This document shows, piece after piece, positions 2,472 to 58,167 of a DNA stretch of 64,000 nt. Numbering within the stretch: position 1 is the first letter of the stretch; every line of letters starts with the position of its first letter. Under the pieces are notes generated by a model. That model ran no database searches and was not told the DNA's origin. It saw nothing but the letters and a program-made list of their open reading frames with translations. The translations under genes were made by a program, and so were the position numbers. Origin of the DNA: a virus; IMG/VR virus record IMGVR_UViG_3300002307_000034, positions 40,951 through 104,950 of that record, one strand, 5' to 3'.

Positions 2472-3352
2472 ACTGTTGCACTTATCCTAAAATTATAACT
2501 TACAGCTCCACCCACTGAATCAAACTTTACGCTTGTTGTATATACAGTAGATGAAATTATTGTTGCAGATCCATTAATTATAACAGTTTCTGTTATAGGG
2601 ACTGCAATAAAAGATGATGGATCTATATAAATATTTTCTGGAGTATCCAAAGCATAGGTTGGAGCAGGAATTGCTGAAGTAGGTTGTGGAACAGATTGCA
2701 CATCAGTAGATATTGATGGAGCACTTTCTACAGATCCCGATCCGCCATTTGCTGGAGGTATAGTTATATCAAGTGTGGGGGCATCAATAATTGGAGAAGA
2801 GTTAACTGAGCTATAATCTATTACAGATCCCAAAGAGCTGGAAGAATATGTAGATGTTGAAACACTTGTATCAGTTCCAAGTGTTTGTAAAGAGCTTCCC
2901 CAGGCTCCAGGTCCGTAACCAACGTCCCAATATAATTTCCACCCAGTTTGAGGATAATATTGATAGTGTTGATTTGCACCAGCATCTGTTGGCATTGGTG
3001 GGATTAAAGATGTTCTCCATGCTGAAAAATCTGAAGCAGTTGGAACATAGCCATTTATTGCTCTAAAAGCAATTGCAAAAGCTTCTGTATTCCTAGGGTC
3101 TGTTGGATACAATGGTTGAATTGTTGTATTTGTAGGATTTGAAATTGGTTGAGTATAGCTTGATACATTTGAACTTGACGAAGTTGTTGAAGTTGTTGAT
3201 GGTCCCGAAGCAGCTATGATCCCAGCAAGTGTTGTTGTATCAACTGTTGGTCCTGGATTAGTTGGTACATTTGCAGCAGGATCAATGTAAGTCCAAGTTG
3301 TTGCACTTGGACTAGGTTCATTACCTCCATCAATTAGCATTCTATCGTACAT
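2468..3352 (-). CDS. Putative tail-associated protein (Ser/Thr/Pro-rich)
   Basis: SD AGGTGGTGA and extended -10 upstream; position in tail module. Confidence 0.45.
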   Translation of the reverse strand: MYDRMLIDGGNEPSPSATTWTYIDPAANVPTNPGPTVDTTTLAGIIAASGPSTTSTTSSSSNVSSYTQPISNPTNTTIQPLYPTDPRNTEAFAIAFRAINGYVPTASDFSAWRTSLIPPMPTDAGANQHYQYYPQTGWKLYWDVGYGPGAWGSSLQTLGTDTSVSTSTYSSSSLGSVIDYSSVNSSPIIDAPTLDITIPPANGGSGSVESAPSISTDVQSVPQPTSAIPAPTYALDTPENIYIDPSSFIAVPITETVIINGSATIISSTVYTTSVKFDSVGGAVSYNFRISATV

Positions 3353-3380
3353 TAAATCACCACCTTCTATATTATATCAT

Positions 3381-7775: not shown

Positions 7776-8527
7776 TATATCTCCGTAAATTGCAAAGTTA
7801 CATCAACATAATCTGTTAATGTAAATCTTTTTGTTATAGTATATTTAAAGTCTGTCATAAATGCTTGATATAATTCAGTTCCGCTTCTTGGGGTTACAGT
7901 TTTATATGTTCCCGATGCTGATGCTGATGATATATTAGAAACTACAAATCTTGTTGAATCAACGGCATTTACTATATAGCTGCCATTATACTCTGTTGGA
8001 AAAATACCTGCAATGTCTACAATTTGTCCAACAGATAATCCGTGTGAAGTTGTTGTAGTAAATGTAACAGATCCAGTTGAAGGTGAATTTAAAGATTGAT
8101 TTGGCGTAACAGTAACAATTTGTATTGGATTTGTCAAAGTTCCTTTTTGAGAAGAATTAAAAGCTGTTCCTGATGCATTATCAGTTGAATTAATTAATCT
8201 TACATATATTGGTTGGAATACATATTTATCATAAAATGCTTTCATGAAAGCTGCTCCTTGACCGCCATCTGTTGTTGCTTTAAATCCACCTAGACTTACG
8301 CCATTTGTATATAAAGTATTACTTGCAGCTGGAATATATGACCATGAACAATCAATAACATTTTTATTAGCAATGACAAATTTACGCATAGTTCCATTTG
8401 CCATTCTTTGTACCTGTTCAATACGAACGGGAGCAGATTGGATAGGACCTCTATTATCGTCTGTAAGTTTATACCAGGTATTATTATCTGCTGATACCCA
8501 AATTCCTGATGCTATTGACCAAGCCAT
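7775..8527 (-). CDS. Distal tail (Dit-like) protein with inserted beta module
   Basis: Immediately after TMP; RMANGTMR motif; C-terminal VTLQFTEI. Confidence 0.6.
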   Translation of the reverse strand: MAWSIASGIWVSADNNTWYKLTDDNRGPIQSAPVRIEQVQRMANGTMRKFVIANKNVIDCSWSYIPAASNTLYTNGVSLGGFKATTDGGQGAAFMKAFYDKYVFQPIYVRLINSTDNASGTAFNSSQKGTLTNPIQIVTVTPNQSLNSPSTGSVTFTTTTSHGLSVGQIVDIAGIFPTEYNGSYIVNAVDSTRFVVSNISSASASGTYKTVTPRSGTELYQAFMTDFKYTITKRFTLTDYVDVTLQFTEI

Positions 8528-11500
8528 TATACATTTCTCCTTGTCATCTGCTTTTGAACAGATTGATTAATTTTAGTTATAACAAGATTTGCTACTTGAT
8601 TAGCATCCGCCCCTTGTGGAGGATATACATTAATTGTGTTATCTCCAAACCTTACATTGTTTGATGATACTGCATCTGATATTGCAGATGATCTTGCAGC
8701 AGATAATGCAGATTGTGGAACGGTAAATGATTTATTGTTTACAGCGTCTAAGAAAGATTTTCCATATTTACTTACAGAATCTGCTTGAATTACATATTCT
8801 CCATTTGAAAGATTTGCAGGGATAGAATCAGACTTTGAAGTTCCTGGACCCATTACATACCCACCGCTTGCTAATCCTAACTTCTTTACCAAATTTGAAA
8901 TAAGTCCTCCAAAAAGACTATTTAATAACCCTAAAGGACCACTTGCAATTGACTTTATTATTCCTGCAACTGATGTTACTGAATTTGCTATATCTTTAAT
9001 AACTTGACTTATTTTATCCCAAATTCCAGTAAACCAACCTGAAACTGGTTTAGATATTGCATTAAATATATTTGAAACAAATCCCCAAGTTTCGCTTGCC
9101 CATGTTTTTATATCTTTCCACATTTGAGAAAACCATGATGCTACGGGCTTTTCAATTTTATTCCAAATTTTATCAATGAATCCCCAGATATCGGATGCAA
9201 GCTGTTTTGTGTCTTTCCACATTGTAGAAAACCATTGTCCTACAGGTTTAGTAAGTTTATCCCAAATTTTTTGAATCCATCCCCAGGCGTCGCTTACATA
9301 TTGTGCAATTTGTTGCCATAAACTCTTATGTTTTTCAAGCCAATCATTATATTCTTTTTCAAGTTGAATATTAATATCTGATTGTACTTTTGAAGCTCCC
9401 GCACCTTTACCGCTTTGTGCTGCAGATAATGCAGCTTGTGCTGCAGCAAGTGCAGCATCTTGTGTAGCTGTGCTAATCGTCTTGCCTGGTCCTGAAGTTT
9501 TTGCTTGAAGTTCATCAATTTTTGCCTGAAGTGCATCAATTTTATTTTGTGAAGATAAATCTGCTGCAACCTTTGCAGCTGCCATAGCATCTTTGGTTTT
9601 TTGAATTTGTTGATTTTGTTGCTGAACGGCAAGAGCTATAAGATCTCCGGATCCTCTTGCTTTTACAGCTTCTGCTTCAAGATTCATTTGTGCTTGCTGA
9701 GCATCAATATTTCTTAATTGTGAATTGTATAAGTTATCACGAGCTGTTTTTTCTTTTTCTATTAATTTAATCTTGTCTTGATAATCTTTAATTGCTGTTT
9801 TATCTCCTGCTGTAGAAGTATCTCCCGCTGCTGCTTTTGCAGCATTTGCATGTGCAGCATCTGCTGCTGCTTGTGCTGCATCTACCGCAGCTTGTGCTGA
9901 TGCAGTATCAGATTTTATAGCATTTTGATATTGTGCAAATCCTGATGTTGCAGTTTTTACTCCCGCTGCTGTTCCAGCGCCAAGTATTGCGTTTTGAGAC
10001 AAGAAAAACCCTGCAGAAGCCATCTGATTAATTGCAATAATATCTTGCATTGCAACCTTATGAGCTTTTAATGTATTATTTAAACTTTGAAGTACTGGAT
10101 CAGATTTGCCCACAGTATCATTCCATGATTTAAAAGCTCCATCTGAAGACAGTGTTGCTTTTTGAACATTTGTTAATGCTGCAAATGCAGATTGAAAACC
10201 AGTAATATATTTTGGGTTAACAAGCTCTTCATATGTTGTGGGAGCTTTAGTTAATTGTGTTAATAATTGTCCTTGAGCTTGTGCTTGATAATTTTGTTGT
10301 CCTTTTCCTGCGAGGCCTGGGAATACTTTTCCAAGTCCAGCGGTGCCTAATAAGAACGGATCTAACATTCTCAATACTCTACCCGCACCATTATTTGAAT
10401 TTAAATTTTTACCAAATATATTTGCTTCACCGCCAAACAAAACGGACTTCATTACATTTCCCCAAGAACCGCCTGCTTTTGCGCCTTCAGCTGTACCCAA
10501 AACTTGACCAGCATTTATTTGTCCGCCCAAAGAATTTCCAGCTTTAGATATTACACCTGAATAAGTATCAGTTAATGCTTTTGTAGATGCAATTACTTTA
10601 TGTTGAGATGCAGCAAGTTTATCATTTAATAATGATTCTGTTAATTTTGCTTGAGTAATTGTAATTGCATGTGTTGCAACTCCATCTGCTGCCATTTTAT
10701 ATGCATTAATATTATTTGATGCATTTGCATAACTTGTTGCTATTTCGCCGTTAGCTTGTTTTGCAGCGTTTGCAGCATTTGTCATTCCATTACTAAATAT
10801 TTTAAGTCCAATTACTGCAGCTGCTGCAGGTGCAGCAAATGCAGCTGTTGCTGAAGTCATAGCTAGCATGCCGTATGTCATTGCTGCTGAAGTTGCAGTT
10901 CCTTTTGCTCCAGATAGATCTGCTCCCCCAACTGAATTTGGTATAGTTTGCATTGCAAGTGGAACACCCATCATCAATCCCATATTTAATGCCATAGGGT
11001 TTGCAGCAAATCCTTTAATTCTACCCATTAGTCCAGACATTTTGTTTGCTGAAGTTGTAACTGATCCTATACCTTTATCTGGAGACCACTGACTTCCTGG
11101 AGTACCCATATTTGGCATCCCAAGGAACGTTGAGCCCCCACCCATACCAGGAAGAGACATCTGTTGAAAACCAAGCATTGTTGATGCTGCAAGCTGTTGC
11201 CCAACTAGTTCTGCTTCTGGGAGCATTGAAGCAACACCAAGGACTTCTCCTTCAACTAATTGCTCTCCTTGTGCAAAAGCTCTTTTTGAAGGAGATCTCA
11301 TCTGAGCAGCAGTTGCTATTCCTTCTTCCCAACCAGCTAATGTTGCATTTGTAATATTTAAACCTAATAGTTTAGATTGCTGTATGACTGCTGCCATTAA
11401 TTGTGGAGTATTTGCTCCTTGAGATATAGCACTTTCATACATTTGTTGTATTCCAAGTGTTAGCTCTTCTACATTTCTTGTTGCAATTGCTGCAATTTCT

Positions 11501-14500
11501 TTTTCAGTTACGCCTTGTTGTCTTAATTCTTCATAATAATTTGCTCTTGCCTGTACACCAATTTTTGTGTATTCTGCATATTGCAAGAAGTTTTTTGTAA
11601 TTCCTTGAAGTTTATCTTTATCTTCTAATGACCAAGTTAAAATTTCAGTAAGAACTTTGTTTTGAGTAATTAATTCTTTGCCTGTTGCTGCTAAGTCTTT
11701 TGTTACTTTTCCTTCAAGGGCTGCATATTCGGCTTGTATTTTAGCAATTTGTTGCTCTTCATTAGCCATTCCTTTTGTTGCAGCAAGTTCTTTTTCTTTT
11801 GCTGATTGTAATGCTTTTAAGTATACATCTTTATTTCCCGCACCAGTTTGTCCAACCATCATGTTTGCAAGCTGATTTGGAACTTGTGCCATACCAGCCC
11901 ACAGCATTGGATTAAATGAACCTGATGGTCCACGAACAACTTTTGGAAGATTTACAAGGTGTGCTCTTGAAGCGTTATAAAAATCTGGATTTGTTATTCC
12001 TGCATCACGAGCAGCTTCGGCAATTGCATTTTGTTCTCTACGCATAGATTCAAGCTCATATGGTCTATTTCCTAATGATCTATCAAATGGAACTCTTGCA
12101 CCAAGAGAGGATGCACCTCCGCCACGACTTGAAAGACCTACTGTATAAAGTTGAGTTTTTTCAAATCCTGGTAAACCAAGTGCTGCTACCTGATCTCTTA
12201 CTGATTGAAGAGATGTTTTTAATACTTTTCCTTCTTTTACAAAAGACTCAAGATATGATACAACTGCTGTTTTAATATCATCAGTCATTGCTGTATCTTC
12301 TGCAAACATTTGTTGCAATCTAGATACTTCTGTAGATCTTCTAAAACTAAATTCTGTTAATCCAACTACTCCACCAGCGTATCCGCCTAGTGTTCCGTTA
12401 TTCATTGCATTTAATACTGATCCATATTTTTTAGTTGCATTTGCAGTTATTACAGATTCTCCTGGAGCAAGCATTGCGGGAATAGAATCTTTTGTTCCGG
12501 AGCCTGGTAATCCAACTACTCCAGATGCAAATCCTGGAAGTCTTACTTGTACTCCTTTTCCTCCGCCAATTCCCATAGCTTCTCTTTGTGCTACGGCCAA
12601 TGCTTCAAATTGCGTGGTTAATTCTGTAATTGATTTACTTAAAATATCAAATGCTTTTGCATTACTTGTAATGGATTCTGGCATAAGATCCATTTGATTT
12701 CTTGCAGCAATAATTCCAGTATCAAGATTTTCATAGAAATTACGCATATTATGAATGCCAGCCATAAACTTATTTTGAGTAGGAAGAGATTCATCCATCC
12801 CTTGCCTAAACATTCTAATATAATTAGCACCCTTTAATAAGTTACCTGTTAAGTTTGCAAATAAACCAATTAACATTAATATTGGTCCAATTACAATCAT
12901 TCCAACTAATCCGCCACCAAATACTTTTCCTAATATACCAGCTATAGGCCCAAGCATGTGACCAATTTTTTCAAATGATTTAATTATTTTATCTAATGCT
13001 CCAGCTAATCCGCTGAATGAATTTAAAAATGTTTGTCCTATAGGAATTAAATCTGCTTTTATTGTTTCTGTCATTCTCTTAAATCTACCACTTGCAGATT
13101 CAGTTTGAGTTTTTAATTCTTGTGCTGCTAACTTTGCAAGATCTTGTGAAGAAGCTCCCATTAATTGAAACACTGTTTGGGTTTGGCTTCCAGCTTTTCC
13201 TAAATTATCAATAAGTGCTTGAATTCTTGCTTGTTGGAACTTTCCAAATAATTTTTCAATCAGTTGAGCTTTTACAAGTGGATCTAATTTTTGCATAGAT
13301 ACTTGTAATGCTTCAATCATTTTTACTGGATTTCCTCCAGTTGTTGATGCTATATTTTTTACACTAATTCCATATTGTTTAAAAGCATCTTGTGCTGCTT
13401 TAGTTGGATTGATTAATGAAGCAATAGCAGATTTAATTGCGTTTGCAGCTTGAGCTGCTGGCACACCTGCTTCTTTCATTGCAACCATCATTGCTGCTGT
13501 ATCTTTAAACGATCCACCTAATTGTGCAACAATTGGTCCTACTCTTGGAATTGCATCTACTAAATCTTGTAAGCTTGTTGATGTTTGGTTTTCAACTGCG
13601 TTTAAGAAATCAACTGCTTGAGTCAATCCTTGTGTATTTAATTTATAAACATTTTGCAATGAAACGGTAGCTTTCATTGCTTGTGCATGGTCTAATTCTC
13701 CGAGTGTTGCAAGCCTTAAAGCTTCTCTTGTTGCATTTATTAAACCTGTTCCTGTTTGTCCTGTTGCAGCTAAATCTGCTGCCATTGCAGCTGTTTCTTG
13801 TACAGAAATGCCAAAACTTCTTGCAAGTTCTGTTCCAAGTGCTGTTACATCTTTTCTTACTCCAGCTAAAACTTCTTTTGTTGGTTGCTGTAAACCAGTT
13901 CCATAAACTTTAGCTAATCTTGTTAATTCTTGGTCAACTTGTAAAAATGTTTTAGAGGCTGTTATTCCAAACATAGCCATTGGCATAGTCAAACCAACAG
14001 TTAATTGGCGTCCCATCCATTGTGTATTTTTACCAAAATTGATCATCTTCATAGCACCATCATTAAGTGCTGTGTTTAATGCTTTTTGATAAAATATAGC
14101 TTTTTCTTCAGCAGTAACTACACCATTGATATCTGTTACTAATTTTGCATATCCTGGTCGAAGTGGATCTGCTACTGCAATTGATCTATTTAATCTAGCT
14201 TGTGATGTAGCTAGTGCGTCTAATTCTTTAGAAGTACCTTTTGCACTATCCCGCCAAATTTTATAATAATTATTTAAACTTAATTGTCCTGACGCAAGTT
14301 GTTTTCCAAACTTAGTCACACTGTCTGTCATAGCTACATGCTGAATTGTAAATGCACGAGTAGACAAAACCGCACTATCAAAAGCAGATTGTGCTTGCTT
14401 GATAGATGCGGTTGCTTGAGGAGTAAAGGGTCCGCCAACTGACATCTTTTGCATAGATGCCATTGCTTCTTTTAATTTTGCAACTTCTGCATAAACTTGT

Positions 14501-47458: not shown

Positions 47459-47543
47459 TGTGACCCAAATCACAAAGATTTTTTGCAAATTGTCTCAAAT
47501 GTCCGTTTTGCGACTTGATTTTGTCAGTGTACTAGTGTAGTAT
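47459..47543 (+). promoter_or_regulatory. Composite promoter cassette 1 (CRP-type site, -35, PafBC-type -26/-10)
   Basis: TGTGACCCAAATCACA 47459; TTGATT 47515; TGTCAG-N10-TAGTAT 47522..47543. Confidence 0.75.
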
Positions 47544-47599
47544 TTATACTATAAGAGTTAATAAAGGTTATTAGCACTTCTTAAAGAAAGGTTATCCAA

Positions 47600-47743
47600 A
47601 TGATAACACTAAACTATACTTCTCTAGATTCTGACAATTCCGCCCGTTCTTTTGTGGGGTACTTCCATACAGAGAAAGCGGTCAATGACTACCTTGACCT
47701 AGTCTCAATAGATGAGACAATCCTCACAGTCAGCGTGATATAA
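47600..47743 (+). CDS. 47-aa hypothetical early protein
   Basis: GAAAGG SD; hand-translated MITLNYTSLDSD... Confidence 0.6.
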   Translation: MITLNYTSLDSDNSARSFVGYFHTEKAVNDYLDLVSIDETILTVSVI

Positions 47744-47809
47744 ATCACAAAACCTGACTGGTCAGATACGGCGTGTCGCATTGACTTTCGCCAAATAGTG
47801 TGATAGTAT
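47702..47809 (+). promoter_or_regulatory. Composite promoter cassette 2
   Basis: GTCTCA-N5-TGAGAC 47702; CGTGA-N6-TCACA 47734; GGCGTGTCG 47770; TTGACT-17-TAGTAT. Confidence 0.75.
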
Positions 47810-47865
47810 TCCACTATAAAATTAAATAAGAATAAATAAGAAAGAGTCTAGAAAGGACTACTATA

Positions 47866-48084
47866 ATGAATAACTACTATAATGAAATCCGCAAGGACAT
47901 CGCTAAAGACTTTGGTCTAGAGGCTGGTGGCTATGCTCCACTTCCTGCCCCTGCCTTGTCTATCGTTCAGGCTATGCGCCTTAATGCTAAGTACCCTAGC
48001 GAGGCGTTATCTACACGCCCTAGCGATAAGGCTATACTAATCGCTAAGCGATACGCTAGCCTAAAGAAAGTCTGGTCTAACTAA
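47866..48084 (+). CDS. Hypothetical early protein
   Basis: GAAAGGA SD downstream of promoter. Confidence 0.65.
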   Translation: MNNYYNEIRKDIAKDFGLEAGGYAPLPAPALSIVQAMRLNAKYPSEALSTRPSDKAILIAKRYASLKKVWSN

Positions 48085-48169
48085 TGACTATAAATAGCCT
48101 AACACTAATACAACTAGGTCTAATGTCGTACCTAGTTGCTAAACTAATAACAACTAAGAAAGAGGACTA

Positions 48170-48370
48170 ATGAAAACTAAGGTTATCACTACCGCCCTAC
48201 TAATAACGCTAGTACCTGCCACCGCACAGGCTAGCACTCACCACCACCGCACACCTAGAACTTATTCGGTGTATAATACAAATGTGTATAGAGGACAGAT
48301 GACTAAGATGAAATCTGCTCTCGGTATCCACTACCATACATACACACCTAAGCACCACAAGAAATACTAA
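48170..48370 (+). CDS. Small secreted basic His-rich protein
   Basis: Signal peptide ending AQA; GAGGA SD. Confidence 0.55.
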   Translation: MKTKVITTALLITLVPATAQASTHHHRTPRTYSVYNTNVYRGQMTKMKSALGIHYHTYTPKHHKKY

Positions 48371-48383
48371 GAAAGGAAAACTG

Positions 48384-48560
48384 ATGACTATGACTTATGT
48401 ACCTACTTGGGAGCGTGTCTATAATCCTTGGGACACAGAACCCGATTTCTATGATTTATCACAAATTGAAGAAGAAGAAAACGAAAAACAAAAAGATGAA
48501 ATGTCTATCGAAGAAATTGCCGAAGAAGAACTAGAATTAGAAGAGGATTTTGACCTATGA
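48384..48560 (+). CDS. 58-aa highly acidic protein
   Basis: Hand-translated; GAAAGGA SD; ends IEEIAEEELELEEDFDL. Confidence 0.6.
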   Translation: MTMTYVPTWERVYNPWDTEPDFYDLSQIEEEENEKQKDEMSIEEIAEEELELEEDFDL

Positions 48561-48724
48561 TGAGCCGTAAAGACTATGTAGAAACTGCACGAATTCTAAA
48601 TAAATATAAATCAGTAATAGATGAAAAAGATTTTTTAGATTTAGCAGATGATTTTTCTTTTATGTTTGAAAAAGACAATCCTAATTTTATTGCAGATAAA
48701 TTTTTAGAGGCTTGCAATAAATAA
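48557..48724 (+). CDS. 55-aa protein, RKDY...DNPNF family paralog 1
   Basis: Aligns with 49377..49571. Confidence 0.75.
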   Translation: MMSRKDYVETARILNKYKSVIDEKDFLDLADDFSFMFEKDNPNFIADKFLEACNK

Positions 48725-48738
48725 AAAAATCGAAGATC

Positions 48739-48992
48739 GTTGAAGCTTTGACTATAATGGTTGAAGCTTCAACTATTTTTTTGGGCGGGGTTTCAATCCC
48801 CGCCCGCACTCGGGCGTGTCGCATGTGGTATAAGTCACAAAGTACACGCTCCATATATTGAGACTACTTGCAAGTATACTAGACAGTAGCGATTTTATGT
48901 GTTATACTTCCAGTATTGAAAAATTAAATAAGAAAAAAGTTAGTTAATCAACGGCGTGTCGCCTTGATTTTCCGCAGAAAGTCTGCTAAACT
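48739..48992 (+). promoter_or_regulatory. Composite promoter cassette 3
   Basis: GTTGA-N4-TCAAC boxes, 24-bp GC repeat, CRP-type site 48824, GTCTCA box, TACTTGCAAGTA, two -35/-10 pairs, GGCGTGTCG 48953. Confidence 0.75.
48798..48821 (+). repeat. CCCCGCCCGCACTCGGGCGTGTCG repeat, copy 1
   Basis: Identical at 49715; one-base insertion at 51814. Confidence 0.95.
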
Positions 48993-49025
48993 AACGATAG
49001 TTAAAAATAAAGAAAGGTGGTCAAA

Positions 49026-49220
49026 ATGACTACACTAACAATAAACGAAGTATGCGTTAAGCATACACCTCATAAAGAATCTATTTCCGTGATTGCTCAC
49101 GATTTCGATTCTGCCGATTATTTCACTTTTTGTGAAAATTGTGAACAAAACATAGAAAGTTTTTCTTTCTATGATGATGACAGAGGTACTGTCTATACTA
49201 AGTGGACACTTAGTAAGTAA
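49026..49220 (+). CDS. Small Zn-ribbon protein
   Basis: C..H and CENC; GAAAGGTGG SD. Confidence 0.6.
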   Translation: MTTLTINEVCVKHTPHKESISVIAHDFDSADYFTFCENCEQNIESFSFYDDDRGTVYTKWTLSK

Positions 49221-49376
49221 AGAAAGGATAAACTTAAATGATAGCAATTAAATGTGATGAATGCGGTGGTGCAGGATTTATTTTTTTTGGTAATGAAAAT
49301 GATTTTGATGTAATGAAATGCGATTGCATTTCTGATGATGTTGATTTTACTGATGGAATTATGGGGGCTTAAATAA

Positions 49377-49571
49377 ATGATGACTAGAAAAGACTATGTG
49401 AGTGTAGCCAATATTCTAAATGATATTGCTAAGCCTAATATGGATATGGTTCCTTTTGAGGATTTAGTAGCAGAGTTTGCAGATATGTTTTTTGCAGATA
49501 ATCCTAATTTCTCTCCCACCCGTTTTGAAATGGCTTGCTATGGAAATGATGAGGGTGGTGATGTTAAATGA
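49377..49571 (+). CDS. RKDY...DNPNF family paralog 2
   Basis: Aligns with 48557..48724. Confidence 0.75.
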   Translation: MMTRKDYVSVANILNDIAKPNMDMVPFEDLVAEFADMFFADNPNFSPTRFEMACYGNDEGGDVK

Positions 49572-49678
49572 AAAACGAAGATCCATTTGGATTTGCAAAT
49601 GCAATTCAGCTTGATCATCTTAATTTTGAACAATTAAAAGAATTAGAAAAGATTTTAGATAAAATTAAATAGCTGATA

Positions 49679-49833
49679 AGTATAATTATGCAAATCACTG
49701 CATAATTATGCAAGCCCCGCCCGCACTCGGGCGTGTCGCATTACGGTGTGAGATTTGTCACACAGGTTGAGCGTCTCAAAATGTGGAATTACTTACGAGT
49801 AGGTAGAATAATGTCAGTGGTATCGTGTATAAT
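49679..49833 (+). promoter_or_regulatory. Composite promoter cassette 4
   Basis: Tandem ARG-type boxes, 24-bp repeat, CRP-type site 49747, GTCTCA box, TACTTACGAGTA, TGTCAG-N10-TATAAT. Confidence 0.8.
49715..49738 (+). repeat. 24-bp GC repeat, copy 2
   Basis: Exact match to 48798..48821. Confidence 0.95.
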
Positions 49834-49869
49834 TCCTACTATTAACAAGAAAGAAAGAAGGTAGCAAAT

Positions 49870-50091
49870 ATGCTAATCTCAACAGCCCTAGAAGGCAAAT
49901 ATGTAAAGTCCTCAAAAGGACAAGGAATAATCCAGTACGCAGATTTCCGCAAGGATATGCGACACTCTACGCCCGAAGGCTATCTTGCTTATGCTTGCAA
50001 AGTACGCCCACACTGGAACGGCGAAGGATTTCCTAAGCCTGATTTCTGGACAACAATTTATGTCGGACTTGATTCAGAATTGGTGGACTAA
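49870..50091 (+). CDS. Hypothetical early protein
   Basis: GAAGGT SD downstream of cassette 4. Confidence 0.65.
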   Translation: MLISTALEGKYVKSSKGQGIIQYADFRKDMRHSTPEGYLAYACKVRPHWNGEGFPKPDFWTTIYVGLDSELVD

Positions 50092-50195
50092 ATGGGTAAT
50101 ATCGCAGATGAATTATGGAATAATTATAAAGAGGCTACTTGGAACACAATGTCAGTGCCACCTGCTACAATATGGGAAACAAAGGAGAACGACTA

Positions 50196-50405
50196 ATGGA
50201 ATATAGTTATGTAATTACTACACACTATGACGGCGATTATTTTTCGTCGCATAGATTTTCAGATGCACTAACTGCTGTAAATGCGTTTAATAAATGCGTA
50301 GATGTAGGAGATGCAAAAGAATATGCAACTTATAATCTATTAGAGCCAAATGGCAAAATGCATACACTTAATTTTTATAGAAATGGGGCAGTAAATGGGA
50401 AGTAA
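50196..50405 (+). CDS. Hypothetical early protein
   Basis: AAGGAG SD before MEYSYV. Confidence 0.65.
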   Translation: MEYSYVITTHYDGDYFSSHRFSDALTAVNAFNKCVDVGDAKEYATYNLLEPNGKMHTLNFYRNGAVNGK

Positions 50406-50694
50406 TCTAGCAACAGAATTAGCTGGAAGTGAATTAGGTTTATCTATGGAAGATAGTATTGGTATGCACTTGCGTGTTAATCACTACCCTCCCGTCCCAA
50501 TTTCTATGGTACAGCCTTGCATAGATGCTATTGACGCATATTGGGAAGAAGACTTAAATCGTGAGATCGAATTACCTGAAGGCGTATCTTGGCGTGGCAA
50601 TACCTATGCACCCGCATATGCTATTATTGAGAATCATCACTTGGAAGCCTGGTGCCAGGAAGATGAATACTTAGATGAAGAAGAATTGGTGTGA
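50395..50694 (+). CDS. Hypothetical acidic protein
   Basis: HLRVNHYPPVP...HHLEAW; coupled to upstream gene. Confidence 0.7.
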   Translation: MGSNLATELAGSELGLSMEDSIGMHLRVNHYPPVPISMVQPCIDAIDAYWEEDLNREIELPEGVSWRGNTYAPAYAIIENHHLEAWCQEDEYLDEEELV

Positions 50695-50794
50695 TGTAAC
50701 TCACACCAGACACGCCCATAGTGGATTGGACAAAGGTTGTTCCGCTATGGTAAAATACCACCTATAAACAACAACAAAAGAAAAGAGAAATAAA

Positions 50795-50959
50795 ATGACA
50801 GTATCAAACAAGACATACGCAGTAGGCGACCTATTCACCACACAGAAGTCAAAGGTGACAGGCACTATCAAGGAAATCAACCCTATCAACGCAAGCACGA
50901 CCCGTGTGCTGCTTGATGTCGAAGGCAAAGACCGCTGGACAACAGTATCGTTTGCGTAA
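50795..50959 (+). CDS. 54-aa SH3-like beta protein, GDLFTT family paralog 1
   Basis: Hand-translated; aligns with 51529..51699; the ORF track shows only the antisense shadow. Confidence 0.75.
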   Translation: MTVSNKTYAVGDLFTTQKSKVTGTIKEINPINASTTRVLLDVEGKDRWTTVSFA

Positions 50960-51041
50960 TTAAATAATAATTGGCAGGAGGGTGTCAGACCCTCCTGCTA
51001 TACTATCTCTCATAACAAACCCGAATAGAAAGTAGAAATAA

Positions 51042-51458
51042 ATGTCAAGAGCAATCACAGTAAAGGTGGCAACACCAAAGGTAATCAAGGCTTTGGAAAC
51101 AAAGTTGGCAACAATTAAAACTGATTATGCTAATCAGGAAAAGAACGAAGCAAAGTATCAGAAGGACTTTGAGAAGTATCGCAAGGCTCTTGCTGATTAT
51201 GCTATTGCTAACATCAAGAAAGCAACTAACATCAGAACTAATCATCGCTCTTGGAATAATAGCCTTAACATTGACTTTGATGTTGATACACAAGGTGCTA
51301 ATTTTCCTGCTGAGCCACAGCGTGAGTTTGAGCAACTACACGCACACACATACAAGGAAATTGTAGAGGACATCTCAAATGCTCTCACAATTCTAAAAAT
51401 GACAGACGAGGAAACAGTAAATGCTTCTACTATGAAGCAAATCGCTAAGTATCTCTAA
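51042..51458 (+). CDS. Hypothetical coiled-coil early protein
   Basis: Preceded by TGTCAG-N10-TATACT promoter. Confidence 0.7.
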   Translation: MSRAITVKVATPKVIKALETKLATIKTDYANQEKNEAKYQKDFEKYRKALADYAIANIKKATNIRTNHRSWNNSLNIDFDVDTQGANFPAEPQREFEQLHAHTYKEIVEDISNALTILKMTDEETVNASTMKQIAKYL

Positions 51459-51528
51459 ATAATACAAGACCTGAGCATAGTCTTAAAACTGCTCACACTA
51501 TAACCCGAAATAGAAAAGGAAAAAAATA

Positions 51529-51699
51529 ATGACTTTGCAAGGATACACATATCAAATTGGTGATTTATTCACAACATCTAAAACTGGAGTAACTGGTCGC
51601 ATCATTAAGTTTGCACCAATCTCAAATAAAGTAACTCGTGTTCAATTGCAATTAGCAAATGGCTCAAAGCGATTTGCTATGGTTAAAACTTCTATCTAA
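51529..51699 (+). CDS. 56-aa GDLFTT family paralog 2
   Basis: Hand-translated; AAGGA SD. Confidence 0.75.
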   Translation: MTLQGYTYQIGDLFTTSKTGVTGRIIKFAPISNKVTRVQLQLANGSKRFAMVKTSI

Positions 51700-51792
51700 T
51701 AAAATAATTAAAGTGGTCGTGAGTGATAACAGGTAAGTGTTATAGTAGCCTATAACCACCACTTTATTTTTTGGATCTGCAGCTGCTAATAA

Positions 51793-51931
51793 TAGTTGAA
51801 CATTCAACCAAAACCCCGCCCCGCACTCGGGCGTGTCGTTACGAATGTGATTTTAATCACTTGAATTTTGTCTCAAATAATAAGATTAAGGGCGTGTCGA
51901 GTGGACAAATGTCAGTGCGTTTTGGTATACT
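51793..51931 (+). promoter_or_regulatory. Composite promoter cassette 5
   Basis: GTTGAACATTCAAC, 25-bp repeat copy 3 (51814..51838), CRP-type 51846, GTCTCA box, GGCGTGTCG 51891, TGGACA, TGTCAG-N10-TATACT. Confidence 0.8.
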
Positions 51932-51962
51932 AGCGACAGTTAAACAGAAAGAAGGTCTATTC

Positions 51963-52079
51963 ATGAACCTAGATGAATTTAAGACACATGTCCTTGCAAC
52001 ACGCAAGGCTTCACAGGCAGAAGCGATGTCAGTCCTATCTGCTACAATACAACCTCAACCCGAAAAGAAAGAAGAATAA
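51963..52079 (+). CDS. 38-aa protein containing an internal promoter
   Basis: GAAGG SD; MNLDEFKTHV... Confidence 0.55.
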   Translation: MNLDEFKTHVLATRKASQAEAMSVLSATIQPQPEKKEE

Positions 52080-52084
52080 ATAAA

Positions 52085-52564
52085 ATGGAAAATCTAACAA
52101 TGTCTCAGGCTCGTGTAATTATTGACGAAGCCGTTGCAAATTTTGATGGAAACCTATCAGATGAAACAATTTCTCAAATTGTTTTTGCTATGAATGAAAA
52201 TTTACAGATTCGTGATTACACCCTAGGCTTACCTATTAACTATGGAGTCGAGCATATGGTACAATTCTTTACTTATATCTCAGACCGAATTCCATCGGAT
52301 GAGGCATATGCGGTTAATACCGTATTAGCAATGTTTGAGTATGAATTAGGCGAAACAGATATTGCTTCCCACCTCATTCAATCTGTAAATGGGACTAGAG
52401 TCTACTCTCTTGCCCTTCTTGCGACTCGTGTTATAAATGCAGGATGGCCATCAGATTCTTTCGTTGCAATGCGTAACGAATTGGCACCCAAAGTTATTGC
52501 AAATATCGAAGAATTAGGAGATGAGGTAATTGGTCAAAAATTGGATGAAAATGAACTTGTCTAA
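52085..52564 (+). CDS. DUF4192-like protein
   Basis: QIRD and YSLALLA..VINAGWP motifs. Confidence 0.5.
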   Translation: MENLTMSQARVIIDEAVANFDGNLSDETISQIVFAMNENLQIRDYTLGLPINYGVEHMVQFFTYISDRIPSDEAYAVNTVLAMFEYELGETDIASHLIQSVNGTRVYSLALLATRVINAGWPSDSFVAMRNELAPKVIANIEELGDEVIGQKLDENELV

Positions 52565-52667
52565 AGTTCAACGCATACAAGAATTGCGACGCAGTAATGC
52601 GTCGCAACCTCTACGCAATAAAAAGAAATACACCCGAAAAAACAAATATAAGAAAGTAGAAGAATAA

Positions 52668-52931
52668 ATGTCAAATCTCTCAACCGCCCTTGCACTACAA
52701 GAAGGAATTTCTGAAATTGTCTTCTCTGATGAAGTAATGATTTATGCAGCTGAAATTGCAAAAAATGCAGATTTTAATCCTGAAGTTTTAGAATTAATAA
52801 TGAAATACGCTTCTACACTATCCGCAGGCGTTGCAACAAAAGTTGTAGAAATTGTAATGCCTAAATCTGAATTTAGTTCTATGATGAAAGAACTTAAAGA
52901 AATGCAAGAGATTGGAGATTCAATTGAATAA
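52668..52931 (+). CDS. Hypothetical protein
   Basis: ORF track, co-directional array. Confidence 0.6.
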   Translation: MSNLSTALALQEGISEIVFSDEVMIYAAEIAKNADFNPEVLELIMKYASTLSAGVATKVVEIVMPKSEFSSMMKELKEMQEIGDSIE

Positions 52932-53205
52932 GTCAACTGGACAAAACATTCACACAAAATGGATCCAAGATGCATTGGGTGTGAGCACTGCAGTAGCACT
53001 ACGTGTGCAAAAAGAAATTAATCAAAACTATGATTTAGATTGGTCTGAAGCAGATATGGACGAAATCGAATTTACTGCAATGTTGGCGTTTGAAAATATG
53101 AATGTAACACATAGCTTTTAGTTGCGACGGGTGAGAGAGACGGTGGGTCCAAGGGTTGGGCCCACTGTTACCACTTGACAAATGCAAATTTTTGGGGCGG
53201 GGCTT

Positions 53206-53417
53206 TGTGATGCAAATCACATGTGATTAAGATCACATGCATAAGGTTTGACCAATCACCCTTACGAATGATAGAATCATCCAATGGAATCAATAATGCT
53301 CGTGCCCGTTTTGTTCTTTTTGTCACCATTTATGATGGCTTTTCTAGCGTATGTGTTTTATGTCACAATTAAAATACGTTGATAGGCTTGACGAATGTCA
53401 GTCCAGTCTGATATACT
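53206..53417 (+). promoter_or_regulatory. Composite promoter cassette 6
   Basis: Back-to-back CRP-type sites 53206 and 53222, third at 53352; TTGACG-NN-TGTCAG-N10-TATACT. Confidence 0.75.
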
Positions 53418-53448
53418 TACGGCTTAACCAAAATGAAAGAAGGTCAAA

Positions 53449-54483
53449 ATGAACCAAAATACAGTCCATCAATCTGAAATCGAATCCGGCGAAGCGTCTT
53501 TTGCTATTGTCGAATCTCGTTCCAATCCTGCTTGGCATAGTTTTGCTAACAAGGTTTTCGATAAGGATATCGAAACTCCTACAGTTACAGAAATTATGGA
53601 TGCTGCTAAATTATCTAATTGGAATGTTCGACTTGAGCCTATTGCCGAATTAGTTCCTGACTACAATATGATTAGCGATTCTTATCTTGTTGTCCGTGAT
53701 AATCCATATGGTAAAGGTAAGGATGTTCTTGCAACAGTAGGCTCACGCTATAAAGAAGTGCAGAATGAAGATTTATTTGCATTTGCAGAAAATCTACACG
53801 ACTCCAATCCTGACGTTAAAATTGATTCAGCAGGTTCATTTAAGAGTGGACGTGTTGTTTATGGTTCTTGGTCTGTACCTAACCAATTAGTTCTTGACCC
53901 AAAGGGTGCTAACGATGTAACGAATCTATATTTGATTTGCTACACCTCACACGATGGGTCTGTGTCTGTGCAGGTTGCTTTAACGCCTGTCCGTGTTAAA
54001 TGTCAAAATACACTTAATTTTGCTATGAAACGTGCTAAGCAATCTTTCAAGTTGCGTCATACTCAAACAGTAGACGGAAAAATTGCACAGGCTCGTGAGG
54101 CTTTAGGTTTATCTATTGCATATATGGATGAATTCTCTAAGCAAGCGAATGAATTATTTACTCGTGAGGTAACAGCGTTAGATTTTAGCAAAATCATCAC
54201 AACACTTTATCCTAAGCCTGAATCAGATAAAAAAGGTTCGCTTAAAAAGTGGGAATCAAAAGTTGTTTTGCTTGACGAGTTGTATCACAATTCACCTACC
54301 AATGAAAATATCAAAGGTACTGCTTGGGGCGTAGTTAATGCATTAACCGAACGCCTTGATTATTATCGCACAGCCCGCAAGGGTAATGGTGAATCGCTTG
54401 TTTATTCTGCAAGTGGTTTTGACCCTGTAATAAATGCAGAAAAAAATAAAATTGTTAAAGCGGTTTTGCAACTAACTGCTTAA
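53449..54483 (+). CDS. DUF932 (TIGR03299-like) protein
   Basis: PAWH, VGSRYKEVQN, TSHDGS, TPVRVKCQNT, RHT, GTAWGVVNALTE. Confidence 0.9.
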   Translation: MNQNTVHQSEIESGEASFAIVESRSNPAWHSFANKVFDKDIETPTVTEIMDAAKLSNWNVRLEPIAELVPDYNMISDSYLVVRDNPYGKGKDVLATVGSRYKEVQNEDLFAFAENLHDSNPDVKIDSAGSFKSGRVVYGSWSVPNQLVLDPKGANDVTNLYLICYTSHDGSVSVQVALTPVRVKCQNTLNFAMKRAKQSFKLRHTQTVDGKIAQAREALGLSIAYMDEFSKQANELFTREVTALDFSKIITTLYPKPESDKKGSLKKWESKVVLLDELYHNSPTNENIKGTAWGVVNALTERLDYYRTARKGNGESLVYSASGFDPVINAEKNKIVKAVLQLTA

Positions 54484-54489
54484 TAAATC

Positions 54490-54521
54490 GGGGGCGAGAA
54501 ATCGCCCCCACATTTTTTTTT
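54490..54521 (+). terminator. Intrinsic terminator
   Basis: GGGGGCGA-GAAA-TCGCCCCC plus T-run. Confidence 0.9.
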
Positions 54522-54537
54522 AGATCAAGAGCTGCAA

Positions 54538-54691
54538 TTTATAAATATGCAAAGCGTTGCATAATTATGCATCCTCGGGGTATGTGATGTAAAACACAAT
54601 TACGATATGTCCGAATTATCACTTGAATACCAATTACGAAGATCAAATTACGAATTACGATTGGACATATGTCAGTGGTATATGTTAGAAT
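54538..54691 (+). promoter_or_regulatory. Composite promoter cassette 7
   Basis: Tandem ARG-type boxes, CRP-type 54583, ATTACGA repeats, TGGACA-NN-TGTCAG-N10-TAGAAT. Confidence 0.75.
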
Positions 54692-54717
54692 ACCCTATAT
54701 TCAACGAAAGGAAATAT

Positions 54718-55449
54718 ATGCCAAATTGGGTCTATAATGGTTTAACAATTGAAGGTAAGCCAGAATCTATAACTAAATTAAAAGAACAAATGAATACTCC
54801 CTTTGTGGATTATATTGAAGCCAATGGTGATTTAGCCTTTGGTGTTAAAGAGACTAAGTATTCTAATCCTGTATTTTCATTCCGTAATATCATTGCTCCC
54901 ACCGACCTTGAAGCATACAAGGCACAGCCTGTTCGTTCTGAACTTGATTGGAATGACCCTAATTGGTGGGCTGATATTCAACGTCTATCTGAAACAGATA
55001 ATTCTTGGTATAACTGGAACATGCGTAATTGGGGAACAAAATGGGATGTGGCTGTATCTGAGGATAATAAGTATCCTAATACATATATGCAAGAATCAGA
55101 TAATGGTGAGAATAAAGTAGTTTATTATTCATTTGAAACTGCTTGGTCTGCCCCGTTTCCTGCAATGGAAAAGTTATCTGAACAATATCCTGATTTGTTA
55201 TTTACATTATCATATGAAGAAGAAACAGGTTGGGGTGGTGAAGCAGAATTCTTGAGAAGTAAAATGATTAGTCATAGTGAATATGAAAACAAATGCAGAG
55301 ACTGTGATGCAACCGACACTCTAGACTATTGCGAAGAGTGTGAAAATGAGATATGCTCTGCTTGTGGATTTGGAAACGAGGAACTTGACGAAAACAAATG
55401 TCAGTCCCATAGTGTACAATTAGCCTCTACAACAAACGAAGGGAAATAA
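54718..55449 (+). CDS. DUF1281/YubB ferredoxin-like-fold protein with C-terminal Cys motifs
   Basis: MPNWVYN, WYNWNMRNWGTKWD, FETAWSAP; start re-placed. Confidence 0.8.
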   Translation: MPNWVYNGLTIEGKPESITKLKEQMNTPFVDYIEANGDLAFGVKETKYSNPVFSFRNIIAPTDLEAYKAQPVRSELDWNDPNWWADIQRLSETDNSWYNWNMRNWGTKWDVAVSEDNKYPNTYMQESDNGENKVVYYSFETAWSAPFPAMEKLSEQYPDLLFTLSYEEETGWGGEAEFLRSKMISHSEYENKCRDCDATDTLDYCEECENEICSACGFGNEELDENKCQSHSVQLASTTNEGK

Positions 55450-55451
55450 AA

Positions 55452-55865
55452 ATGGAAGCAGTACAAGAGACACTAGCAATACAGTATTTGCAAGAACTTG
55501 AATTAAAATATGGTAATGAGATTACTGAACTTAAAAATCAACTGGCTTCACACCAGAATTGTGATTATTGGAAATCAGAAAATGGTCGCATTGGGCAACA
55601 GTTAATTTCTATAGTTGATGAGTACTATGAAGATGGAAAAGATGCAGAAGTAATTGTTCGTGAATTGTGTGAAATCATTGACTACCAGCCAACATTTACG
55701 GTAGAATTTACAGCAACAGTTACCTTTAATGGTCGTATTGAAGTTCCTGCTGATGAGAAGGAAGACTTTGATTTGACTGACGCACTTGGTGATGTATATG
55801 TAGATATCAATAATGGCAACGTAGTTATTGATTCATATGACCTAGAGAATGTAGAGGAATGCTAA
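55452..55865 (+). CDS. Hypothetical acidic protein
   Basis: ORF track; SD and internal upstream promoter. Confidence 0.65.
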   Translation: MEAVQETLAIQYLQELELKYGNEITELKNQLASHQNCDYWKSENGRIGQQLISIVDEYYEDGKDAEVIVRELCEIIDYQPTFTVEFTATVTFNGRIEVPADEKEDFDLTDALGDVYVDINNGNVVIDSYDLENVEEC

Positions 55866-56047
55866 TGGCTAGTACATATTTTATTACTGGAACGATGTAT
55901 GAAGTTATCTATCCAGATGAGATGGAAGATACTATTGACCTAAGTGACATCTATGACAAGTATTTCAATGATGAAGGCTCTTTACCAGATGATGTTGAAG
56001 TAATTGAATCGGAAGTAACACATTTCTGGGAAGGAGATATAGTCTAA
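55859..56047 (+). CDS. Small acidic protein
   Basis: ORF track, coupled. Confidence 0.55.
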   Translation: MLMASTYFITGTMYEVIYPDEMEDTIDLSDIYDKYFNDEGSLPDDVEVIESEVTHFWEGDIV

Positions 56048-56268
56048 TGGCTATTATTACACTTGATGCAGGTTCCCGCCAAACGGCGGGAGCCATAATG
56101 GTTGAAGCTTGGAAATTTGGTGTAGAGGTAGAAATGCTACATGGTAATCAAGTAGAACTATGTTCGGCTAATGAAGAGAAATTAGATCTTATTGCAAATA
56201 AATATAAAGGCGTAAAAGTATTGCATAAAGAACTATTAAAGGAAGTTGGCATATATGAGTCTAACTGA
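56047..56268 (+). CDS. Hypothetical protein
   Basis: AAGGAG SD. Confidence 0.6.
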   Translation: MAIITLDAGSRQTAGAIMVEAWKFGVEVEMLHGNQVELCSANEEKLDLIANKYKGVKVLHKELLKEVGIYESN

Positions 56269-56575
56269 TCTAATTAATCTAATATACACAGATATAGATG
56301 GTCATATGAATGAATGTGATTGTAATCTATGTATCACTATGGATATCGTGCAGGAATATATACAGCGTTCCCACCTTGACAAGGTGGATGCTGGTATGGT
56401 AGGATAGCACCTATGCAAAATGTATGGATTGAACCTGTAATACTATTAGACAAAACTTTTTATTTTGTCTATGACTATAATGCTGATATAACTGCTGATG
56501 ATTTAGTAGTTTGCAATACATTGCTTGACGCAATTGATTACTGTAAATCTAATAACCTAGAATATGAGATTGTAA

Positions 56576-56881
56576 ATGATTGAATATATTGAAGAGGCTT
56601 ATCAACTAGTAACTGGATATACTTCTAAGACCCTCCGCCCTGGTTTAATGGATTTGCTAACATTTGATATGTTGGTTGATATGAATATGCAGGACGATGA
56701 GTATGTTTGGTTTAATACACCTGATGAGGTTATGCAACACATTGTTGACAATAACGTTACCTTTACGCTACAATTCGGTTTAGATGATTTATGGCATGCA
56801 ATAAGAGAATATCTAATAGAAAATGATTTCGTCAAAAGTATTGACGATGTAAAAGAAGAAGAGGAAAATAATGACAACTAA
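56576..56881 (+). CDS. Hypothetical acidic protein
   Basis: ORF track. Confidence 0.6.
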   Translation: MIEYIEEAYQLVTGYTSKTLRPGLMDLLTFDMLVDMNMQDDEYVWFNTPDEVMQHIVDNNVTFTLQFGLDDLWHAIREYLIENDFVKSIDDVKEEEENNDN

Positions 56882-57047
56882 GACAAATGCTCGTGAGTTT
56901 CTTGTATCAAAGGGATTCAAGCCAGGTGCTCGTGGCCGTTTCTCTGCTGAAATGATTCAGGTCCTTAAGGATTCAGGCCTTGAATTTAATCGTCCTGTAA
57001 AGGACCCTAAGCCTCGTGCAAAGAACGAGTCTGTAACTTTAAAGTAA
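56871..57047 (+). CDS. Lsr2-like DNA-binding domain protein (58 aa)
   Basis: Hand-translated; AREFLVSKGFKPGARGRFSAE resembles the Lsr2 RGR AT-hook domain; GAGGA SD. Confidence 0.7.
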   Translation: MTTKTNAREFLVSKGFKPGARGRFSAEMIQVLKDSGLEFNRPVKDPKPRAKNESVTLK

Positions 57048-57235
57048 ACCCTTTCACTACAAAGGTTCCGCTGCGTGAGTCCCGTACATTGTACGGGCTT
57101 GCGATAGATGGATCCAAGCTCGGTTATGTGATGTGTACGGATTGTGAACAGCATATGACATTTTGCGAGTGTGAGGGTGGCGTGAAGGCTCCGTCTCAAA
57201 TAGTAAGAGCCCTAGACAAACTGGTAAGACTCTGA
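57038..57235 (+). CDS. Cys-rich extension probably reached by -1 frameshift from the Lsr2-like gene
   Basis: Open -1 frame with CTDC..H..C.C, no good own start; T TTA AAG heptamer directly before the stop. Confidence 0.55.
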   Translation, partial: FKVNPFTTKVPLRESRTLYGLAIDGSKLGYVMCTDCEQHMTFCECEGGVKAPSQIVRALDKLVRL

Positions 57236-57262
57236 TATAATTCAGGGTTCGGAAAGGACAAT

Positions 57263-57562
57263 ATGGAAATCAACGAAAAGTATGTTAAACAAACTCTAGA
57301 TGCTATGGCTGACCATAGAATGACTACAGGTGTAGTTGCTCAACAGATTGCCCAATTCAAACCAAGGGAGCAAATTAGATTCTTTAAATTAGCAATTAAC
57401 TATATAGAGATTCTTGCACAGCACGGAGAGCGTGGCTACACTATGTTAGGTTTAGAACACATTGTTAAGGCTTGCGAGGAACTCTTATTTGTGGTAGACT
57501 TGCACTTCCCAAAAGATGAAACACAGATGACCCTACCCGGAATGGAGTACGTAGCAGTATGA
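57263..57562 (+). CDS. Hypothetical protein
   Basis: TAGACA-17-TATAAT promoter and GAAAGGA SD. Confidence 0.7.
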   Translation: MEINEKYVKQTLDAMADHRMTTGVVAQQIAQFKPREQIRFFKLAINYIEILAQHGERGYTMLGLEHIVKACEELLFVVDLHFPKDETQMTLPGMEYVAV

Positions 57563-57680
57563 CAACTTATTCAATCGCTTTAGAAGTTGATGAAGAATGG
57601 TTGCGAGTTATTCAAGACCTTACGTCTGAGGTCTATGACGGTGAAGTATGTAATTGGAAAAAGATAGAGGAGATTAAATA

Positions 57681-58058
57681 ATGGGAGCAAGAGTAAATTT
57701 CGTATTCAAGACAGAGTTAGATAAGCCTAACATTGTTCTATATTCTCATTGGGGCGAGGATACTTGGCAAGAAGATTTGGCTATGGCTATCGAAAAGGCA
57801 AGCAATCGTCTAAAAATGGGTGATGCAGTTTATGCCCTACGTATAATGATTGACCAATTAACTAAGTCTGGGCGGGACGAGGAAACAGGATTCGGTATCT
57901 ATCTAGCAGATGAAGATATGATGTATATGGACACTACAGTAGAAATTGATATGACTACTCAAATGGTTAATGATTCAGGCAATTGGCATTCATTTGAATC
58001 ATTTAGAGAATATCATCTAGAGGAAATGAAAGAGTACCACAAGTTTGACAATATTTAA
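57681..58058 (+). CDS. Hypothetical protein (MGAR...LYSHWG type)
   Basis: GAGGAG SD. Confidence 0.7.
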   Translation: MGARVNFVFKTELDKPNIVLYSHWGEDTWQEDLAMAIEKASNRLKMGDAVYALRIMIDQLTKSGRDEETGFGIYLADEDMMYMDTTVEIDMTTQMVNDSGNWHSFESFREYHLEEMKEYHKFDNI

Positions 58059-58080
58059 TATACAGTAGTATAATATATAT

Positions 58081-58165
58081 AAAGATATAGGGCGTTCAGG
58101 CTATTCTGCCAAGTCCAATTAATAGGACCCACACGAATTCGGGATCGTGTGGGTCCTTTCTTATT
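58081..58165 (+). ncRNA. Candidate small RNA
   Basis: TTGACA-18-TATAAT (58045..58074), about 85 nt without a start codon, then a 13-bp terminator stem. Confidence 0.45.
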
Positions 58166-58167
58166 TC
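58124..58167 (+). terminator. Intrinsic terminator closing the early array
   Basis: AGGACCCACACGA-N8-TCGTGTGGGTCCT plus TTCTTATTT. Confidence 0.85.

Follow-up and report, generated by a model that had tools for sequence, protein, structure and literature searches.

Candidate PafBC-type promoters free of a LexA box precede the small early genes of a freshwater actinophage family

Within an array of small genes carried by a freshwater metagenomic virus, we found a repeated element, TGTCAG-N10-TAnnnT, that equals the promoter motif of the actinobacterial WYL-domain activator PafBC. The virus is IMG/VR record IMGVR_UViG_3300002307_000034, which is 104,950 bp long and estimated to be 97% complete, and the window analyzed here is its right-hand 64 kb (64,000 nucleotides (nt); positions 40,951 to 104,950 of the record). 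From their placement and conservation, we take the sites to be genuine promoters that serve the early small-gene array of the phage, and the motif to be the family-wide promoter of a clade of freshwater phages. It seems fairly probable that these hybrid promoters are used by host RNA polymerase together with host PafBC, the dependence on PafBC being the part that we infer. A broader proposal, to which we give slightly less than an even chance, is that a large and abundant family of lytic freshwater actinophages swapped the -35/-10 early promoters seen in its Streptomyces-phage relatives for LexA-free copies of the host's PafBC promoter, so that a host sensor of single-stranded DNA (ssDNA) would switch on the takeover genes while 10-20 sites per genome would drain PafBC away from host repair genes.

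The element occurs nine times in the window, always on the + strand and always between 47522 and 55420, compared with 0.85 on average, and at most 5, in dinucleotide-preserving shuffles of the window. No additional copy was found anywhere else in the whole record. The nine positions listed in an initial annotation, made by a model from the letters alone, proved exact. TGTCAG by itself is not enriched in the window (20 copies versus 26.6 expected), so the signal lies in its combination with TAnnnT and in the clustering. Among the + strand TGTCAG copies that the annotation had named as departing from this rule, those at 38583 and 43969 were correctly placed, those given as 6759 and 43703 lie at 6758 and 43693, and one at 38589 had been overlooked. 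Within 24-56 nt downstream of each of the nine sites, there is an ATG with a GAAAGAAGG-like ribosome-binding site. In the small-gene array, a generic sigma-70 scan found 83 promoters against 78.5 in shuffles, which is not above background.

The array itself (47600..59599, +) holds approximately 40 genes, mostly of unknown family, among them a DUF932 gene, an Api92-like gene and one with a weak Lsr2-like match. Its first promoter, TGTCAGTG-N8-TAGTAT at 47522..47543 (all sites are on the + strand), lies in a divergent control region and precedes the ATG at 47600. It is followed by TGTCAGTG-N8-TATAAT (49812..49833, ATG 49870), TGTCAGTGCCACCTGCTACAAT (50150..50171, ATG 50196), TGTCAGAC-N8-TATACT (50983..51004, ATG 51042), TGGACAaaTGTCAGTG-N8-TATACT (51910..51931, ATG 51963) and TGTCAGTC-N8-TACAAT (52027..52048, in the 3' end of gene 51963-52079, ATG 52085). 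Promoter TTGACGaaTGTCAGTC-N8-TATACT (53396..53417) belongs to the DUF932 gene (53449-54483), and its orthologous promoter is conserved in related contigs. The Api92-like gene has TGGACAtaTGTCAGTG-N8-TAGAAT (54670..54691, ATG 54718), and the last promoter, again TGTCAGTC-N8-TACAAT, lies at 55399..55420 in the 3' end of gene 54718-55449 and precedes the ATG at 55452; approximately 20 further small genes follow it with no other copy of the motif. Five of the sites (47522, 49812, 50150, 51910 and 54670) read TGTCAGTG, as had been reported, and the three said to lie inside genes are indeed in frame with the open reading frames 50092-50196, 51963-52079 and 54718-55449. TGTCAG is present at the -26 element in 9/9, and a -35-like hexamer stands 1-2 nt upstream in four, one fewer than first counted (47522 TTGATT, 51910 TGGACA, 53396 TTGACG and 54670 TGGACA). 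Beyond the nine, there are two degenerate copies: TGTCGT-N10-TAAACT with a TGc extended -10 (48124..48145, +, ATG 48170) and TGACAG-N10-TATACT (49178..49199, +, ATG 49238).

The same promoter recurs across relatives of the phage. Of 19 IMG/VR loci with a gene for a DUF932 relative (GC 35-39%), 18 have sites on the coding strand, 2-19 per locus, with almost none opposite. An extended-consensus scan of IMG/VR returned at least 120 stretches, and 71 of the first 80 listed have three or more sites on one strand. Over 138 related IMG/VR loci (1.41 Mb), the 10-nt spacer gave 1093 sites on the major strand versus 22 on the minor, while spacers of 6-9 and 11-15 nt gave 7-102 sites each. These spacer counts, with the shuffles and the TGTCAG counts, ruled out chance or base composition as the origin of the sites. 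In three near-complete relatives, sites with the look of a full promoter are confined to one block of 7-13 kb, and one of the three has this block at a terminus that bears direct repeats. The consensus is aaTGTC(A/G)GT(G/C)S-N4-TGnTAnAAT, and a logo of 150 distinct sites reads aaTGTC(A 70%/G 30%)G-T-(G/C)(G/C)-nnt(a/c)-TG(c)-TA(t)AAT. An extended -10 (TGn) is present at 85-90% of sites and a TTGACA-like hexamer, 2 nt upstream, at about a third; in the family logo this upstream signal is faint (0.1-0.26 bits). When candidates were selected blind to the hexamer, on the sole requirement of an extended -10 with a ribosome-binding site and ATG downstream, TGTCRG stood at exactly -28..-23 in 105/215 and GTC in 115/215. 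Among orthologous DUF932 promoters, the -26 element, TGn and -10 are conserved while the flanks have diverged, and these orthologues also carry the -35-like hexamer 1-2 nt upstream.

The motif published for PafBC is tGTCgg(N10)tA(N3)T, with its 5' part at -23 to -28 and a GTC that is strictly conserved across actinobacteria; tTGTCRgtg-N8-TAnnnT (RecA-NDp) is an equivalent form, the promoters have no -35, and PafBC is located between sigma region 4 and the DNA (PMC8635444, PMC6789036). As a positive control, TGTC(A/G)G-N10-TAnnnT was recovered 86-152 nt before the RecA domain in Cellulomonas, Nocardioides, Streptomyces, Kribbella and Geodermatophilus. The phage promoters share with this class the hexamer and its invariant GTC, the -28..-23 position, the 10-nt gap to a SigA-type -10 TAnnnT, the T(G/C) after the hexamer and the actinobacterial setting. 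The identity of the motif, first proposed in the initial annotation, is upheld by hexamer, GTC and gap, as well as by its position before recA in the five genera and in Nanopelagicales (see below). The phage sites differ in that they belong to a lytic-type phage, stand in arrays of 10-21 and precede small early genes, not repair genes, and in that nearly all add TGn and approximately a third add a -35-like hexamer.

We propose that the -10 TAnAAT with its extended TGn would be read by the host housekeeping sigma (SigA-type), whilst the -26 element TGTC(A/G)G, exactly 10 nt upstream, would be read by the PafB wing of host PafBC. The ssDNA-bound activator would then sit between sigma region 4 and the DNA ('sigma adaptation'). 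The rigid spacing of 10 nt is consistent with a factor that docks on RNA polymerase, and the element is already present at the first promoter of the array. The array promoters would copy the architecture of the host recA promoter minus its LexA box and, lacking that box, would be under PafBC but free of SOS repression. Basal activity without PafBC would probably come from the extended -10 and, where present, the -35-like hexamer. The activator itself may be borrowed from the host: no WYL domain, no sigma70_r2 and no PafB homologue was found in the phage genomes, and a phage family without such a factor would have to borrow its host's. The initial annotation had asked whether the rest of the phage genome has a WYL gene, and the absence of one there is in line with the use of a host factor. 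We infer binding of PafBC to the phage sites and a response of these sites to infection or to damaged DNA.

The relationships of the phage point to the kind of host in which such a factor would be found. The phage has a GC content of 33.6%, comes from a freshwater metagenome and encodes a WhiB-family protein above the Pfam cut-off; WhiB is regarded as an actinophage marker (PMC6802176, PMC10914622). Its portal and DUF932 proteins are approximately 50% identical to their counterparts in Streptomyces phages of clusters BE and BK, and its gene order mirrors that of Karimac (BE cluster), running from the small-gene array to the adjoining glycosyltransferase and ribonucleotide reductase genes and on through other genes to the portal. 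No near-identical phage was found in GenBank. The phage also has a RecA, a DnaE, a DnaB-type helicase and a primase of its own. The possibility of a temperate lifestyle, with induction driven by PafBC, was set aside, as no tyrosine integrase was found in four near-complete genomes of the family (serine recombinases were not searched for).

Karimac also offers the closest comparison for the array. The two arrays are homologous and syntenic, and in the terminal-repeat early array of Karimac a promoter likewise precedes almost every gene. However, the Karimac promoters pair a TTGACA-like -35 with a TAGACT -10 and are accompanied by terminator hairpins, and no TGTCRG site occurs in 45 kb of Karimac. 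The element has thus been gained, or kept, in the freshwater clade only. At 900-11600 of Karimac (L010), nearly every gene of the terminal-repeat array is preceded by a GC-rich hairpin and a conserved GCCGCCCCGG(T/C)CAAAAGATCTTG box, -35 and -10; this cassette is a repeated regulatory unit unlike that of the freshwater clade.

The host is a freshwater actinobacterium other than Mycobacterium or Streptomyces, because of the 33.6% GC, the freshwater origin, WhiB and the synteny with the Streptomyces BE cluster. A high-GC host of either genus was ruled out by the GC content of the phage and its habitat, and Karimac lacks any such site. The interpretation given in the initial annotation accordingly stands in its motif equivalence and in its actinobacterial host, which WhiB and the kinship to Streptomyces phages bear out, and falls in the high-GC hosts that it named. 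Freshwater origin and WhiB make Nanopelagicales (acI) the likely host. A search of the phage WhiB against GTDB genomes gave no relatives, and the Nanopelagicales genomes surfaced by chance in a GTDB scan made with a conserved WhiB1 gene. A look-up of the PIG-L protein gave no taxonomic lead.

A tandem pair of WYL-domain genes was present in 4/4 Nanopelagicales genomes inspected, the downstream gene of the pair (in one genome) being HTH_PafC plus WYL, and HTH_PafC was found in 61/61 sampled Nanopelagicales genomes, most of which are only 1.2-1.8 Mb. If the host belongs to this order, it would carry pafBC, for which the initial annotation had proposed a search in the predicted host. In one genome (G006), the upstream gene of the pair best matched the M. 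smegmatis PafB chain in the complex of RNA polymerase (RNAP) with PafBC (PDB 7P5X, RNAP-PafBC; E = 2e-20), and it conserves RMFERDK, the stretch with the DNA-reading arginines R46 and R50. These two residues of PafB read both guanines of GTC (PMC8635444).

The recA loci of Nanopelagicales carry two promoters of the GTCRG type (L132, L137-L156). An exact TGTCRG-N10-TAnnnT was found in 19/33 loci, mostly as TGTCAG..cctgcTACCTT and commonly as TGTCAGTGGCGCCTGCTACCTT; this distal promoter is directly followed by a LexA box, GAACAGATGTTC, and would combine the -26 element with SOS control. A second, proximal promoter, cGTC(A/G)GTG-N8-TACCTT, was present in 25/33. The distal 22-mer is almost the same as the phage promoters at 50150, 50983 and 52027, including the cTGC before the -10, with the difference that the phage promoters have no LexA box behind them. 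In Nanopelagicales genomes the motif is rare, with approximately 3-35 sites per genome and, in 3/4 genomes, no more than a reversed-pattern control, and it is thus no general promoter feature there.

The element could in principle be read by a different host factor, for instance another regulator of the WYL type or some other protein docking on sigma region 4. Nanopelagicales genomes do contain a third, longer WYL-domain protein, and the recA distal promoter, the one closest to the phage sites, has a LexA box, unlike a classical LexA-independent promoter. Set against this, PafBC is the sole factor shown to read tGTCgg at -26 (PMC8635444), and the reading residues of PafB are conserved in the one candidate-host PafB described above. 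We regard such a factor as improbable, and PafBC as the better candidate.

Several observations weigh against a role for PafBC, and the host genomes supply some of them. No motif was found upstream of ruvC in Nanopelagicales. Ten other TGTCRGTS sites in host genomes lie before genes of various kinds (gyrB, dnaX, DUF222-HNH, two NlpC/P60, clpX, HEPN and MerR), so that the host regulon is anchored on recA only, and Nanopelagicales are themselves no more than the likely host. Because loose-pattern counts in these genomes do not exceed the reversed-pattern control, the host regulon is not definable by counts alone. Timing is a further difficulty, as early genes that need ssDNA-activated PafBC would face a problem right after injection.

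The remaining objections concern the phage promoters themselves. Published PafBC promoters have no -35, whereas TGn at 85-90% of the phage sites and a TTGACA-like hexamer at around a third mean that RNA polymerase may fire without PafBC, the element only modulating it. At sites with the -35-like hexamer, hexamer and element form a palindrome, TGACA-AA-TGTCA, which could be the operator of a dimeric phage protein, and any of the approximately 40 array proteins of unknown family could bind the element. Together these features make up an alternative in which the sites are constitutive SigA promoters (extended -10, -35 optional), TGTCAG is the site of a phage regulator and the likeness to PafBC promoters is convergence or mimicry. 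Such a regulator might be an activator expressed from a different promoter, or a repressor that turns the early genes off. The palindrome at 53396 and its orthologues would suit such an operator, and the array also has -35 promoters that lack TGTCAG. However, hexamer, GTC core and exact 10-nt gap match those of the host recA promoters. The rigid spacing suits a factor docked on RNA polymerase, not a free operator, and the palindrome is absent from most sites. No helix-turn-helix (HTH) family match was found among 40 array proteins, which gave one weak Lsr2 match (a binder of novel fold may still be among them), and the first promoter of the array has the element too. We consider constitutive promoters with a phage-encoded regulator unlikely, and continue to favor host PafBC.

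The number of sites raises one more possibility, that titration is their main role. Ten to twenty strong sites, multiplied by replication, would soak up PafBC-RNA polymerase and blunt the host damage response, the driving of genes being secondary. The host has few sites per genome, compared with 10-21 in 8-13 kb of phage DNA, and the phage brings its own RecA, DnaE, helicase and primase. Yet every site is placed as a working promoter, with a gene and a ribosome-binding site behind it, and the strand bias (1093 versus 22) would be needless for a pure decoy. Titration as the main role is therefore very improbable, and we return to the sites as promoters read with PafBC.

Among phage systems, the middle promoters of T4 are a close parallel in design. 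They consist of a MotA box at -30 and a -10 TAnnnT and operate by AsiA/MotA 'sigma appropriation', in which T4 encodes both factors and remodels sigma. Both in T4 and here, the -35 gives way to a box placed nearer to the -10, and sigma region 4 is linked to the DNA by a protein (in our phage, the proposed PafBC). The difference is that no phage factor was found here and that the box equals the element of a host regulon. The early promoter arrays of SPO1 and T5 can be likened to this one by analogy only.

The array contains other elements beside the TGTCAG promoters. A second class of promoter combines a -35 with an extended -10 but lacks TGTCAG. An example is TTGACT-17-TAGTAT at 47781..47809 (+); further members are at 50727-50756 and 57213-57241, and in another the -10 is at 48987. 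Palindromes of the form TGTGA-N6-TCACA (at most one mismatch), resembling CRP/GlxR boxes, occur 13 times in the window, where 2.8 would be expected, and all but one fall within the small-gene array, in a series from 47459..47474 to 58194. Several are centered approximately 84 nt before the predicted start of TGTCAG promoters (47522, 49812 and 51910), and similar boxes lie upstream of the DUF932 promoter in the related contigs L017, L018 and L027. The promoter at 50983 represents a hairpin subclass, TGTCAGACCC(C/T)(C/T)CTGC-TAnAAT within a perfect 10-bp hairpin, with relatives at G003:C1:2073, 6266 and 7463. In the window, the hairpin (50974-50998) reads GCAGGAGGGT-GTCAG-ACCCTCCTGC, its loop being the -26 element and its 3' arm the promoter spacer, and it could be a compact terminator-promoter module. 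TGTCAGACCC was found again in Nanopelagicales genomes.

Outside the window, the phage record has further genes of interest. Eight tRNAs (Arg-TCT, Lys-TTT, Leu-TAA, Gln-TTG, Asp-GTC, Met, Ile-TAT and Asn-GTT) are encoded at G000:C1:8927-11417 (-), mostly for A/T-ending codons, which fits a phage GC well below that of its host. A protein of 182 amino acids (G000:C1:4060-4608, -) matches the Pfam family Proteasome subunit exactly at the cut-off (22.4 bits, E = 1e-4) and, if the match is real, may be a proteasome-like subunit in an actinophage. The phage WhiB (G000:C1:5565-5885, -) is a member of a subfamily whose C-terminal extension, N-S-H-K-T-x-E-x-W...HGK, is conserved. The homologues of this WhiB fall into more than 120 clusters, none tied to a cellular genome and mostly on contigs of approximately 100 kb; judged by these contigs and by one named hit, they look phage-borne, and so no host could be derived from them.

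To our knowledge, promoters of the PafBC type have been described only on the chromosomes of actinobacteria, where they precede repair genes. A search of the literature on PafBC with phage, mycobacteriophage or prophage (by title or abstract) returned nothing on PafBC-type promoters in phage genomes; the papers found deal instead with WYL regulators of defence systems and with PafBC in phage resistance. The promoter type is thus known, and its use in phage early-gene arrays, with an added extended -10 and free of LexA, is new. The phage family occurs in at least 138 IMG/VR stretches and its hosts are probably the most abundant bacteria of fresh water. If the sites are read by PafBC, the phage would time its expression by a stress sensor of the host, not by a factor of its own, and approximately a thousand natural promoter variants would be available for dissecting sigma adaptation. 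Ultraviolet (UV) and other DNA damage in lakes would then be linked to phage gene expression. Should the wider proposal be true, the takeover genes would be triggered by infection itself or by UV damage in surface water, and this would be the first virus known to hijack sigma adaptation.

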